A DNA stretch of 4,260 nt, taken from IMG/VR virus record IMGVR_UViG_2563366941_000004; one strand, 5' to 3'. The notes under the pieces are model-generated. The model saw only the letters and a list, made by a program, of their open reading frames with translations. It was not told the DNA's origin and searched no databases. Numbering within the stretch: the first letter of the stretch is position 1; each line of letters starts with the position of its first letter. The position numbers and the translations under genes are program-made. The stretch is from a virus. Taxonomy: Duplodnaviria > Heunggongvirae > Uroviricota > Caudoviricetes. Positions 332 through 4,260 of the stretch are shown here, piece by piece.

Positions 332-366
332 ACCCCGTCTCCCGTTATCCGGAAGCTGACAACAAT

Positions 367-397
367 AAAAAAAGCCACCAGTTAAGTACTGATGGCT
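367..397 (-). terminator. Putative rho-independent terminator between nanS-p and the pinholin gene
   Basis: Minus-strand RNA would form GCCAUCAG / CUGGUGGC (8 bp including one G.U) with a 7-nt loop, followed by UUUUUUU (plus-strand A-run 367-373). Judged by eye, no folding energy computed. Confidence 0.5.
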
Positions 398-2335: not shown

Positions 2336-2528
2336 GAATCCTCCCGGGCGGGATAATGTTGTGAGTCAGATAAGGAGCAGGCTGAAGTCCGGAAGTTACA
2401 GGACAATGGCAGAAGGGAGACTACAGCCCGCAATTCGAAAAAGACCGCGCAGTTGCGCAGAGTGATTACTATGGGGTATTATTCGCCAGCTGAAATATTA
2501 CTTCACGTTTTATTGTTTATTCCTTGCC

Positions 2529-2557
2529 GCCCGCGTCTCCCAGCGCGGGCTTTTTTT
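2529..2557 (+). terminator. Putative rho-independent terminator on the plus strand, divergent from nanS-p
   Basis: GCCCGCGU (2529-2536) pairs with GCGCGGGC (2543-2550), an 8-bp GC-rich stem with a 6-nt loop, followed by TTTTTTT (2551-2557). On the minus strand the same hairpin is not followed by a U-run. Confidence 0.5.
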
Positions 2558-2561
2558 GTCC

Positions 2562-2588
2562 ATAAGAAAGCCCCTCCGGAGAGGGGCT
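2562..2588 (-). terminator. Putative rho-independent terminator at the minus-strand end of repeat copy A
   Basis: Perfect inverted repeat AGCCCCTC / GAGGGGCT (2569-2576 / 2581-2588) with a 4-nt loop; on the minus strand it is followed by UUUCUUAU. Confidence 0.5.
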
Positions 2589-2797
2589 AAAGCCGCGTAT
2601 CTGTATCATCATGCACATGGTGCCGGGTGCCTCCCGGTGAGTTCAGCCCGGTGCCACTAAACCCGCGTCATTCTCGTTTTGATAATCAGAGATTATACCG
2701 TCACCAGTCGCCCCTCCGCTCAGGGGGATTCACCATGCGAAATTTTTTTAACAAATGCCCAGTCTGACAGGCAACTGTCAACTTACTGAATTGTGAG
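2568..2797. repeat. Structured repeat unit, copy A (diverged direct repeat of 3055-3265)
   Basis: Shares perfectly conserved blocks with copy B: aagcccctccggagaggggct (2568-2588), catggtgccgggtgcctcccggtga (2616-2640), gcccctccgcNcagggggattcaccatgc (2710-2738, one mismatch), tttaacaaa (2747-2755), ctgaattgtgag (2786-2797). Sequence between blocks is diverged with indels. Confidence 0.8.
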
Positions 2798-2833
2798 CAA
2801 CATAGCATTTAACGGGGAACCTGTTTTCTGCAG

Positions 2834-2861
2834 TAAAAAGGCCCACCGGAGCGGATGGGCC
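2834..2861 (-). terminator. Putative rho-independent terminator just upstream (minus-strand sense) of repeat copy A
   Basis: GGCCCA (2840-2845) pairs with TGGGCC (2856-2861) around a 10-nt loop; on the minus strand it is followed by UUUUU (plus A-run 2835-2839). Confidence 0.45.
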
Positions 2862-3048
2862 TGGAAGGATAGCGGTCATGTGATGCCGGTTTCCCGGTAA
2901 CTCAGCACCGGTATCTGAGTCAACGTTTTCTCTACTGGGTCATTTCCGATACGCCCTGCCTGCTGACAGGCTTTCATCACATCTGAAAATATAGCACCCT
3001 GACTGATACTGTAGTACCTAAGGTTCCAGAAACTGTGATGTATCCGGC

Positions 3049-3075
3049 ACAGAAAAGCCCCTCCGGAGAGGGGCT
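3049..3075 (-). terminator. Putative rho-independent terminator at the minus-strand end of repeat copy B
   Basis: Same AGCCCCTC-CGGA-GAGGGGCT hairpin (3056-3075); on the minus strand it is followed by UUUUCUGUG. Confidence 0.5.
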
Positions 3076-3265
3076 GGAGAGTGGCGCTATGTGCCATTGC
3101 ATGGTGCCGGGTGCCTCCCGGTGAATTCAGTACCAGCACCTGAATCCGCGATTATCCCATATACCTACTCGCTGATTGCCCCTCCGCACAGGGGGATTCA
3201 CCATGCCAGTTTCTTTTAACAAACTCCCCGCAAACCAGACAACAGTCAACCGCCTGAATTGTGAG
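3055..3265. repeat. Structured repeat unit, copy B (diverged direct repeat of 2568-2797)
   Basis: Conserved blocks at 3055-3075, 3100-3124, 3178-3206, 3214-3222 and 3254-3265 match copy A in the same order and orientation. Confidence 0.8.
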
Positions 3266-3271
3266 ACATTT

Positions 3272-3295
3272 AAAAAAAAGCCCGCAAAAGCGAGC
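3272..3295 (-). terminator. Putative rho-independent terminator immediately downstream of the tRNA cluster
   Basis: Minus-strand RNA: GCUCGC-UUUU-GCGGGC (6-bp stem with one U.G) followed by eight U (plus A-run 3272-3279). Starts 16 nt after the 3' end of tRNA-Arg(UCU). Confidence 0.6.
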
Positions 3296-3310
3296 CAGGG
3301 AAAATAAGTG

Positions 3311-3387
3311 TGGCACGTTGTACTGGATTCGAACCAGTGACCGATTGCTTAGAAGGCAATTGCTCTGTCCGGCTGAGCTAACAACGC
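3311..3387 (-). tRNA. tRNA-Arg (anticodon UCU), 77 nt, CCA encoded
   Basis: Manual cloverleaf on the minus strand: acceptor GCGTTGT/ACAACGT (G1.U72), D-arm GCTC-AGCCGGACA-GAGC, anticodon arm ATTGC-CTTCTAA-GCAAT (UCU), T-arm ACTGG-TTCGAAT-CCAGT, discriminator G, CCA. Third position in a trio that resembles the ileZ-argN-argO cluster of phage 933W (recalled). Confidence 0.8.
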
Positions 3388-3400
3388 AGGATACAGATAA

Positions 3401-3477
3401 TGGACCGCCTTCGGGGACCCGAACTCCGCGCAACCAGCTTCGAAGGCTGGCGCTCTTTCCTGATGAGCTAATGGCGG
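3401..3477 (-). tRNA. tRNA-Arg (anticodon UCG as read), 77 nt, CCA encoded; non-canonical features, possibly degenerate
   Basis: Manual fold: D-arm GCTC-ATCAGGAAA-GAGC, anticodon arm CCAGC-CTTCGAA-GCTGG (perfect 5-bp stem, U33, anticodon UCG, A37), T-arm CGGAG-TTCGGGT-CCCCG. Deviations: C1-G72 start, A.A mismatch at 6:67, A.C mismatch at 52:62, G at position 58 where A is near-invariant. Confidence 0.6.
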
Positions 3478-3484
3478 TATGTGA

Positions 3485-3560
3485 TGGTGGCCCTTGCTGG
3501 ATTTGAACCAGCGACCTGGCGATTATGAGTCGCTCGCTCTCACCACTGAGCTAAAGGGCC
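3485..3560 (-). tRNA. tRNA-Ile2 (anticodon CAU, lysidine-type, AUA-decoding; ileX/ileZ-like), 76 nt, CCA encoded
   Basis: Minus strand GGCCCTTTAGCTCAGTGGTGAGAGCGAGCGACTCATAATCGCCAGGTCGCTGGTTCAAATCCAGCAAGGGCCACCA. Perfect 7-bp acceptor stem, anticodon loop CTCATAA, T-loop TTCAAAT. Very close to the E. coli ileX sequence as I recall it, so Ile2 rather than Met is favoured, but the anticodon alone cannot distinguish them. Confidence 0.8.
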
Positions 3561-3569
3561 GGGAGCAGA

Positions 3570-3598
3570 ATAATAATGGTGCGTAATTAATTCTGCAA
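3570..3598 (-). promoter_or_regulatory. Putative sigma70 promoter for the tRNA cluster
   Basis: Minus strand: TTGCAG (3598..3593), 17-nt spacer, TATTAT (3575..3570), then 9 nt to the tRNA-Ile2 5' end at 3560. Motif match by eye only. Confidence 0.4.
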
Positions 3599-3609
3599 TC
3601 TCATCCGTT

Positions 3610-3936
3610 TCAAACGATTAAATCCTGAACTTCCCTGACTGTCTGCTCAAAACGTCCGGTCTCCAGTTCAACGCCAATCGCACGACGCCCGAGCGCCAGT
3701 GCCGCTTTTACCGTTGAACCTGAGCCCATAAAAAAATCTGCAACCAGGTCTCCCGGACGACTGCTTGCGCTGATTATCTGCTGCAGCATTTCTGCCGGTT
3801 TTTCGCACGGATGTTTCCCGGGATAGAACTGCACCGGTTTATGCGTCCAGACATCGGTATACGGCACCTGCGCTGTCACGCCAAAATACCGCCGCAGTCG
3901 GCATTCACAACCACAAGCGTGTTTAACGTACTGCAC
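3610..3936 (-). pseudogene. 5'-truncated beta-class DNA (N6-adenine/N4-cytosine) methyltransferase, C-terminal ~108 codons only
   Basis: Translation carries the C-terminal signature ...KHPCEKPAEMLQQIISASSRPGDLVADFFMGSGSTVKAALALGRRAIGVELE (HP-x-x-KP and FxGSGST AdoMet motif I). No DPPY motif or N-terminal half. The frame is closed by an in-frame TGA at 3945..3943 two codons upstream of the only start, a GTG with no Shine-Dalgarno. Upstream 3946-4039 is AT-rich and not MTase-like. Confidence 0.65.
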
Positions 3937-4039
3937 AGCTTTTCAGACATAAAAAGGCCGCCTGATAGCAGCCTTTTCACATTAAAATTAAGTTTTTCTT
4001 TACTCTGTAGTATGGGAAATTAGCATTCCCTACTGGGTT

Positions 4040-4260
4040 GGTAATGACTCCAACTTATTGATAGTGTTTTATGTTCAGATAATGCCCGATGACTTTGTCA
4101 TGCAGCTCCACCGATTTTGAGAACGACAGCGACTTCCGTCCCAGCCGTGCCAGGTGCTGCCTCAGATTCAGGTTATGCCGCTCAATTCGCTGCGTATATC
4201 GCTTGCTGATTACGTGCAGCTTTCCCTTCAGGCGGGATTCATACAGCGGCCAGCCATCCG
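4040..4260 (-). mobile_element. IS1 insertion sequence, partial (right-end 221 bp; element continues beyond window end)
   Basis: 4040 onward reads GGTAATGACTCCAACTTATTGATAGTGTTTTATGTTCAGATAATGCCCGATGACTTTGTCATGCAGCTCC..., which is the reverse complement of the IS1 right end (terminal inverted repeat plus insB 3' end) as I recall it, continuing to the window edge. Confidence 0.9.
4055..4260 (-). CDS. insB: IS1 transposase InsB, C-terminal part (partial, 5' end outside window)
   Basis: Minus-strand frame ends ...[58 protein letters not shown] with stop TAA at 4057..4055, 16 nt inside the IS1 terminus, matching the InsB C-terminus. Confidence 0.8.

Follow-up and report, generated by a model that had tools for sequence, protein, structure and literature searches.

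Two STnc100 small RNA genes and a diverged third paralogue in the late region of a lambdoid prophage

Genes and repeat units between the tRNA cluster and the esterase gene

We analysed a stretch of viral DNA of 4,260 nucleotides (hereafter, the window) from the IMG/VR record IMGVR_UViG_2563366941_000004, which corresponds to the late region of a lambdoid prophage in reversed orientation. Along the minus strand, it carries an IS1 end and a truncated DNA methyltransferase gene, three tRNA genes (3560-3311), a region of small RNA (sRNA) genes, an esterase gene and a holin gene. The sRNA region consists of three units, which we call B, M and A in their minus-strand order, and this B-M-A cassette occupies the lambdoid 'moron' site, between the ileZ-argN-argO tRNAs and nanS-p. 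A first-pass annotation of this DNA had placed the units where Stx phages carry stxAB, and rightly so: in phage 933W, the single copy lies directly after stx2B. In the present DNA, stxAB is absent. The genes of the locus are the following:

3235..3045, minus strand: unit B, STnc100 sRNA gene (Rfam RF02076, 136.3 bits, E 4.8e-31, model positions 1-206)
3006..2833, minus strand: unit M, diverged paralogue (Rfam STnc100, 30.1 bits, E 7.3e-4, below the gathering score of 47)
2767..2558, minus strand: unit A, STnc100 sRNA gene (Rfam RF02076, 165.4 bits, E 1.6e-38, model positions 1-206)
2489..2557, plus strand: convergent sRNA-like gene facing A (TTGCGC-18-TATTAT upstream; terminator 2529-2550 from the terminator scan; start coordinate inferred)
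2335-482, minus strand: SASA/NanS-p esterase gene, 617 aa

Units A and B had initially been noticed as two diverged direct copies of one sequence, and they are indeed so. A repeat search retrieved three co-linear shared blocks of 88 nt (80% identity), 22 nt (100%) and 31 nt (97%), a global alignment gave 168 matches over 240/221 nt, and blastn detected ~70% identity on the minus strand (E 4e-25). Between these blocks the two copies diverge, with indels, as had been described, and the CCGGG/CCCGG hairpin also reported at that time is present in the units. The existence of two units stood, with limits slightly different from those originally drawn, which we replaced by the ends of the Rfam matches given above.

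The Rfam search proposed as a check for the units identified their family. In a scan with all Rfam families, RF02076 (STnc100) matched A and B over its full length on the minus strand, with scores above its gathering score of 47 bits, and both units therefore belong to this curated sRNA family; M stayed below that score. A core model of our own (R1), built from 37 homologues, gave 118.2 bits for B and 107.5 bits for A. The units are thus copies of an already catalogued prophage sRNA family, called EcOnc27/sRNA103 in Shiga-toxin phages: Rfam STnc100 includes both EcOnc27 (Sakai Sp5) and sRNA103 (EDL933/933W), a 2025 paper reports that STnc100 and EcOnc27 (sRNA103) overlap downstream of stx2B, and published 'STnc_100' PCR primers for STEC match unit B exactly. 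The earlier proposal of paralogous minus-strand sRNA genes yielding short terminated transcripts of ~110-190 nt was borne out, as both units are full-length STnc100 genes whose homologues are experimentally detected Hfq-bound sRNAs. By contrast, the novelty implied by its failure to match the units with any named element does not hold, since the element is present in Rfam and in several papers. We have, in sum, rediscovered a known family, with a gene-level reading that was right and a promoter that was wrong. What may be new lies in the details, namely the conservation of B-M-A as a cassette, the M subfamily, which had no name, and the shuffling of modules.

The third unit was recognizable by several means. 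R1 matched M with 30.6 bits (E 2e-6 within the window, where the next match had an E of 0.17). Its unconstrained minimum free energy (MFE) fold displayed an 8-bp closing helix, a 5' hairpin, a central hairpin, a CCGG-GAAA-CCGG hairpin, a 15-nt single-stranded linker and a terminator (z -2.63), the closing helix having a different sequence (AUGUGAUG/CAUCACAU) from that of A and B. Moreover, a second M allele with 86% identity, found in 327 genomes, occupies the equivalent place in another prophage, with a bona fide STnc100 gene on either side. Judging from these predicted folds, M appears to keep the architecture of the family, with every helix and a terminator of its own, built from different sequences. 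It is best called a diverged paralogue or relative of STnc100, and we have not filed it as a member. Together with the sub-threshold Rfam match, the R1 score, the fold and the second allele indicate that the hairpin at 2834-2861, formerly taken for an upstream terminator of A, is the terminator of gene M.

The convergent gene at 2489..2557 showed, by eye, a ~90% match to the printed 3' part of the EPEC RIL-seq candidate E2348C_1409.E2348C_1408.IGR. By its position, it would be the equivalent of the anti-sRNA partner in published sRNA 'dyads' and, by the same analogy, may complete a dyad like those of Tree et al. 2014. We found no Rfam match to AsxR or AgvB in the window at E<=1, and no PasA-like sequence was seen by eye in the esterase-holin spacer (~70-150 nt; the site of PasA in E2348/69).

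Promoter-like elements, RNA fold and terminators

The three genes share the same order of parts: a promoter-like element, a conserved four-helix core, a variable single-stranded tail (~15-30 nt) and an intrinsic terminator. Their coordinates, all of them on the minus strand, are:

3296..3272, minus strand: terminator after the tRNA cluster (stem 3296-3279; terminator scan and 933W annotation)
3242..3213, minus strand: promoter-like element of B (-35-like TTGTCT 3242-3237, TG 3221-3220, -10 TAAAAG 3218-3213 or TTAAAA 3219-3214, predicted +1 G3206)
~3206 to ~3049, minus strand: predicted transcript B, ~158 nt
3075..3048, minus strand: B terminator (stem 3075-3056, then U-tract; terminator scan)
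2996-2988, minus strand: extended -10 of M, TGcTATATT (from the sequence)
~2982 to ~2834, minus strand: predicted transcript M, ~149 nt
2862-2839, minus strand: M terminator stem (terminator scan)
2774..2745, minus strand: promoter-like element of A (-35-like TTGCCT 2774-2769, TG 2753-2752, -10 TAAAAA 2750-2745, predicted +1 G2738)
~2738 to ~2562, minus strand: predicted transcript A, ~177 nt
2588..2561, minus strand: A terminator (stem 2588-2569, then U-tract; terminator scan)

The elements of A and B have a common layout, with TTGnCT, a spacer of 17-18 nt and (TG)nTAAAA ending 7 nt before the G of GCAUGG. That of A is supported by its alignment to PasD and to the 933W copy and by the conservation profile, and that of B can be aligned to the promoter region of PasD2. 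In a set of 54 distinct upstream sequences, a T-rich/A-rich element at -18..-8 and a TTG at ~-37..-35 (numbered relative to GCAUGG) are conserved, positions that correspond to the canonical geometry of promoters. The layout is also co-linear with the published 5' end of PasD2, which its authors placed at the G of GCAUGG from RNA-seq coverage and the size of a Northern band. By analogy, the RNA of each unit likely starts at or near this G, a predicted 5' end that is uncertain because the Rfam model begins ~30 nt upstream of GCAUGG. A generic promoter scan did not call the elements of A and B, which match the consensus weakly.

The first-pass annotation had proposed other hexamers, pairing TTGACA/TTGACT with TATAAT/GATAAT. 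All of them exist as written, with TTGACT at 3244-3249, TATAAT at 2692-2697 and GATAAT at 3151-3156, and with TTGACA at 2776-2781, one base away from where it had been placed. As a promoter, however, this pairing fails: the hexamers are ~78-88 nt apart, a separation of ~80 nt that does not make a sigma-70 promoter, and the scan called none there. The supposed -10 hexamers are located inside the RNA, in the variable insert between P2 and P4, and the conserved outer TTGACA/TTGACT lies 7 nt upstream of the -35 equivalent.

The core consists of a closing helix (GCAUGGUG/CACCAUGC) around three hairpins and includes, in A and B, the variable insert mentioned above. The MFE fold of B comprised P1, P2, P4, P5 and the terminator; in that of A, P4 and P5 were kept and the 5' segment paired with the terminator region, without P1/P2. 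The cmscan alignments, MFE folds and pair counts agreed with the STnc100 consensus fold (closing helix, 5' hairpin, covarying central hairpin, CCGGG/CCCGG hairpin and terminator hairpin), with 93-97% of pairs filled and covariation at 7-8 of the 8 pairs of P4 across two alignments. The homologues came from pattern scans, which provided ~130 enterobacterial and viral loci; the scan of genome contigs gave mostly chance matches outside Enterobacterales, and ~12 enterobacterial loci were usable. When 62 distinct homologues were aligned to the model, 96.8% of the cells were paired and double-sided changes affected 16 of the 26 pairs, versus 5-11 when the structure was shifted by 1-3 columns; in hairpin P4, every one of the 8 pairs covaried. 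When 37 diverse cores were aligned with MAFFT, independently of the model, changes on both sides were seen at 7 of the 8 pairs of this central hairpin. The closing helix and the P2 and P5 hairpins were nearly invariant in sequence, an apparent invariance biased by the search motifs, and GCAUGGUGAAUCC and CGGGAGGC were invariant in the homologue set partly because they served as such motifs.

The terminator scan confirmed the intrinsic-terminator-like hairpins noticed before (stems 2588-2569, 3075-3056, 2862-2839 and 3296-3279), all of them on the minus strand. The last one had been assigned to unit B (as 3272-3295) and has to be moved: it belongs after the tRNA cluster and is the counterpart of the terminator that the 933W annotation places upstream of the stx genes.

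Mode of action, alternative explanations and module shuffling

We consider it probable that the cassette comprises three tandem STnc100-family genes (B-M-A along the minus strand), each terminated independently, and that they encode Hfq-associated sRNAs expressed in the lysogen and acting in trans. This reading joins the family membership, architecture, covariation, promoter-like element, terminators and cassette recurrence found in the present analysis with the expression, Hfq binding, tail seed and trans action of published homologues. A sigma-70-type promoter, with a weak -35 and an extended -10, would place the RNA start on or close to the G of GCAUGG, the conserved core would serve as a shared scaffold, and the variable tail, the terminator hairpin and the U-tail would provide target recognition and Hfq binding. 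As the tails of B, M and A are different, they probably have different targets.

Terminators and single-stranded tails were present in the scan and in the MFE folds of B and M, and Hfq binding and targets have been reported for homologues. EcOnc27/sRNA103, encoded directly 3' of stx2B, was recovered by Hfq crosslinking (Hfq-CRAC) and is visible on Northern blots. When it was over-expressed, fimZ and espA transcripts rose; the support for its published targets is only indirect or in silico. In uninduced EDL933 culture, RNA-seq reads were obtained from each of the 11 listed STnc100 copies, of which STnc100_4 has also been verified by Northern. PasD1/2 are abundant and Northern-detected; their RIL-seq chimeras fall within the final ~50 nt, and UGUGAG, the predicted seed, is located in the tail. 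The five Pas sRNAs have been reported with Hfq-dependent stability; this dependence is not uniform, since in EPEC RNA-seq under the activating condition PasD showed no significant drop without Hfq (log2FC +0.55 and -0.18).

A first alternative is that the region works in cis as a transcription barrier, its stacked terminators insulating nanS-p and the lysis genes from the tRNA and sRNA promoters in the lysogen, and Q-modified polymerase reading through them after induction, so that the RNAs would be by-products or secondary. Counting the terminator after the tRNAs and a hairpin at 2460-2445, five intrinsic terminators would follow one another, and between 2300 and 3650 we detected 10 terminator-like sites, most of them on the minus strand, versus 1.3 expected from shuffles. 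The site lies between pR' and the lysis genes, and 933W has an annotated tRNA promoter, pT, and terminators at equivalent places. Nevertheless, a barrier leaves unexplained the covarying four-helix core, the promoter-like element before each unit, and the Hfq binding and RNA-RNA chimeras of the homologues. We hold this alternative to be unlikely; a barrier role and an sRNA role are in any case compatible and not mutually exclusive.

The extreme conservation of the core is unusual for a simple seed-plus-terminator sRNA and suggests an additional function. In a second alternative, the core would be the functional part itself, binding or titrating a protein, the ribosome or an RNA, and the transcripts would act as decoys, sponges or structured RNAs instead of by base pairing of the tail. 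The core is near-invariant, loop residues included, across diverse enterobacterial copies, its GGGAGG loop resembles a Shine-Dalgarno sequence, and GGGAGGC is kept in PasD despite the loss of the P5 hairpin. In addition, an alternative pairing of the 5' GCAUGGUGAAUCCC with CGGGAGGCACC..GC is possible, and RNAalifold proposes one between the two most conserved segments. However, M has a GAAA tetraloop in the place of GGGAGGC and a changed 5' segment and is still conserved in the cassette, the homologue set was gathered with those very motifs, which inflates the invariance, and the chimeras and seed of PasD map to the tail. It seems to us quite improbable that the core alone accounts for the function of these RNAs.

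Translation from the conserved AUG of GCAUGG (MVNPPVRRG...) is a far less credible explanation. This AUG is invariant, the transcript would be nearly leaderless, and some EDL933 copies have ribosome footprints, with RCV values up to 3.2; yet other EDL933 copies have RCV values of 0-0.1, the frame ends after 1 to >68 codons depending on the copy and is conserved only where it is encoded by the invariant helices, M reads AUG-UGA, and there is no Shine-Dalgarno sequence upstream. A small protein is, hence, very improbable. Finally, the suggestion in the first-pass annotation of duplicated late-promoter/terminator modules of the pR'-qut-tR' type (StxS-like), which would fit short terminated transcripts in a late region, can practically be discarded, as pR', qut and tR' of 933W are found directly after Q and upstream of the tRNAs, a related locus has Q >2 kb upstream of the units, and blastn of the 933W pR'-tR'-pT against the window matched only the tRNA-proximal 3557-3711, not the units.

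The cassette is not restricted to this prophage. Among complete E. coli genomes, 2870 out of 5426 matched part of an 871-nt region, and 353 held at least 80% of it in one place; VR50, ML35 and ATCC 11775 are examples of strains with this exact cassette. Most loci had a single STnc100 copy (78 loci), followed by those with two (9), three (9) and four (1); five of the two-copy loci have a gap of 353-354 nt between the copies, as in locus L191, where Rfam detects the M allele in between. Classification of the parts yielded 21 promoter, 19 variable-region and 22 tail types in 39 combinations, including four-gamete-type configurations, so that promoter, insert and tail modules appear to recombine between copies. 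As a broader and tentative view, for which we see some chance, STnc100 could be a modular sRNA platform whose parts are shuffled by recombination among lambdoid prophages and whose core has a function of its own (binding to a protein, the ribosome or RNA, or a switch between two pairings of the most conserved segments). B-M-A and its convergent partner would then form a fixed array in the toxin/moron slot, and M an unnamed subfamily with every helix sequence changed and the fold kept.

The practical value of these results resides in correct annotation: the region contains three genes of a widespread prophage sRNA family and not an unknown regulatory repeat. The family adjoins stx2 in Shiga-toxin phages, and variants there have recently been reported among HUS-predictive features. 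The three-gene cassette with different tails, the sub-threshold third paralogue and the module shuffling offer experimental handles. The current picture of prophage-encoded Hfq-binding sRNA 'dyads' is left unchanged.

Comparison with known prophage sRNAs

Other prophage RNAs were considered as possible identities and rejected. IpeX of DLP12 and phage PA-2 is a prophage-encoded RNA of the Q-to-lysis region; we found no STnc100 match at E<=0.1 in K-12 573500-578500 (DLP12 quuD-nmpC-essD). AgvB and AsxR (RF02702/RF02703) are RNAs of 51-60 nt with a conserved 3' region of ~42 nt, antisense to the late operon. Units A and B had no Rfam match to them, measure ~150-180 nt and have the sense orientation.

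PasD1/PasD2 of EPEC E2348/69, homologues of EcOnc13 (a name for which a literature search returned nothing), are distant relatives. They have in common with our units the 5' segment GCAUGGUGAAUCC, the closing helix, P4 and the layout of the promoter, as well as the position upstream of a sialate esterase or holin gene. In contrast, they reach only 41 and 38 bits on STnc100, are devoid of P5 and have a longer U/C-rich tail with the UGUGAG seed. In the alignments, A and B keep P5 and carry other tails; they are canonical STnc100, and we rejected their identification as PasD. A common origin of PasD and STnc100 has been proposed by Zhu, Shabalina and Storz (bioRxiv 2026).

A close relative was the 933W copy, located between stx2B and the esterase gene (nanS-p), which scored 207.7 bits on STnc100. 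This EcOnc27/sRNA103 gene resembles A and B in its fold, moron site, minus (late-operon sense) orientation and convergent partner sRNA, and its promoter region is almost the same as that of unit A. It differs in being a single copy, whereas three tandem genes are found here, without stxAB and with other tails, and with M below the family threshold. AsxR lies convergent, right after the 933W copy, at a distance of 282 bp (the AsxR-stx2B spacing in one account, that between the copy and AsxR in another), and the pair matches the published description of the EcOnc27/AsxR 'dyad'. The dyads AsxR/EcOnc27 and AgvB/EcOnc06 (Tree et al. 2014) have the same arrangement as our locus, with one or more sense sRNAs followed by a short convergent sRNA upstream of a conserved esterase or hypothetical ORF. 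Unlike in those dyads, the convergent partner here resembles the EPEC RIL-seq candidate instead of AsxR or AgvB, and the sense side is triplicated.

The third gene and tandem arrays of the family

Between the two reported copies, the minus-strand sRNA genes A and B, which are full members of the prophage family STnc100 (Rfam RF02076), lies a diverged paralogue:

2833-3006, minus strand: M, an STnc100-like gene with its own extended -10 and terminator

M scores below the Rfam gathering score, yet it keeps the fold. Its position as the middle gene of the three-gene cassette is conserved, and a second allele with 86% identity is known. This sRNA family is recurrently amplified in tandem, since arrays were found in other prophages, with up to four members (locus L074, 2320-3350, minus strand), two PasD-like genes in tandem in E. 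albertii (L039, 2181-2576, minus strand) and a further locus on the plus strand (L017, 623-1585).

Alternative pairing in the conserved core

In the alignment of homologues (A2), RNAalifold preferred a pairing of the 5' GCAUGGUGAAUCCC with CGGGAGGCACC..GC (columns 1-15 versus 115-128) over helices P1, P2 and P5 of the Rfam fold. These two segments are the most conserved of the alignment and, as all their positions are invariant, covariation gives no choice between the two structures. The predicted pairing could be a sign of alternative conformations in STnc100-family RNAs.

Flanking features and comparison with related prophages

Several other features surround the cassette:

~4020-4260: IS1A-type insertion-sequence end, ~97-98% identical to annotated IS1 copies
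3610-3936, minus strand: truncated DNA-methyltransferase remnant adjoining the IS1A-type end
3311-3560, minus strand: phage tRNA cluster ileZ-argN-argO
3296-3279, minus strand: terminator after the tRNA cluster
~2489-2557, plus strand: short sRNA-like gene convergent with A, terminator at 2529-2550
2445-2460, minus strand: terminator-like hairpin, CTGCGCAACTGCGCGG followed by TCTTTTT, immediately upstream of the leader of the esterase gene nanS-p
365-395, minus strand: terminator-like hairpin, AGCCATCAGTACTTAACTGGTGGC followed by TTTTTTT, in the spacer that separates the esterase stop from the annotated start of the holin

In strain VR50, a locus that matches 2440-3310 exactly has a PP2C phosphatase gene after the methyltransferase remnant, where the window has the IS1A-type end. 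ARAGORN called the first tRNA Met (CAT), whereas RefSeq and the annotation of Stx phage 933W give tRNA-Ile (AUA, lysidine-type). The terminator after the cluster is the counterpart of the 933W 'terminator upstream of stx', and the hairpin at 2445-2460 also has a conserved counterpart at the equivalent place in that phage (L005, 4820-4843). The long PasA-containing spacer of EPEC E2348/69 is absent between esterase and holin in the window.

The convergent gene matches neither AsxR nor AgvB in Rfam searches, which gave only a weak OmrA-B match (25 bits). By eye, it matches at ~90% the printed 3' part of an EPEC RIL-seq candidate (E2348C_1409.E2348C_1408.IGR), and its position is that of the AsxR/AgvB-type anti-sRNAs in Stx and other lambdoid prophages.
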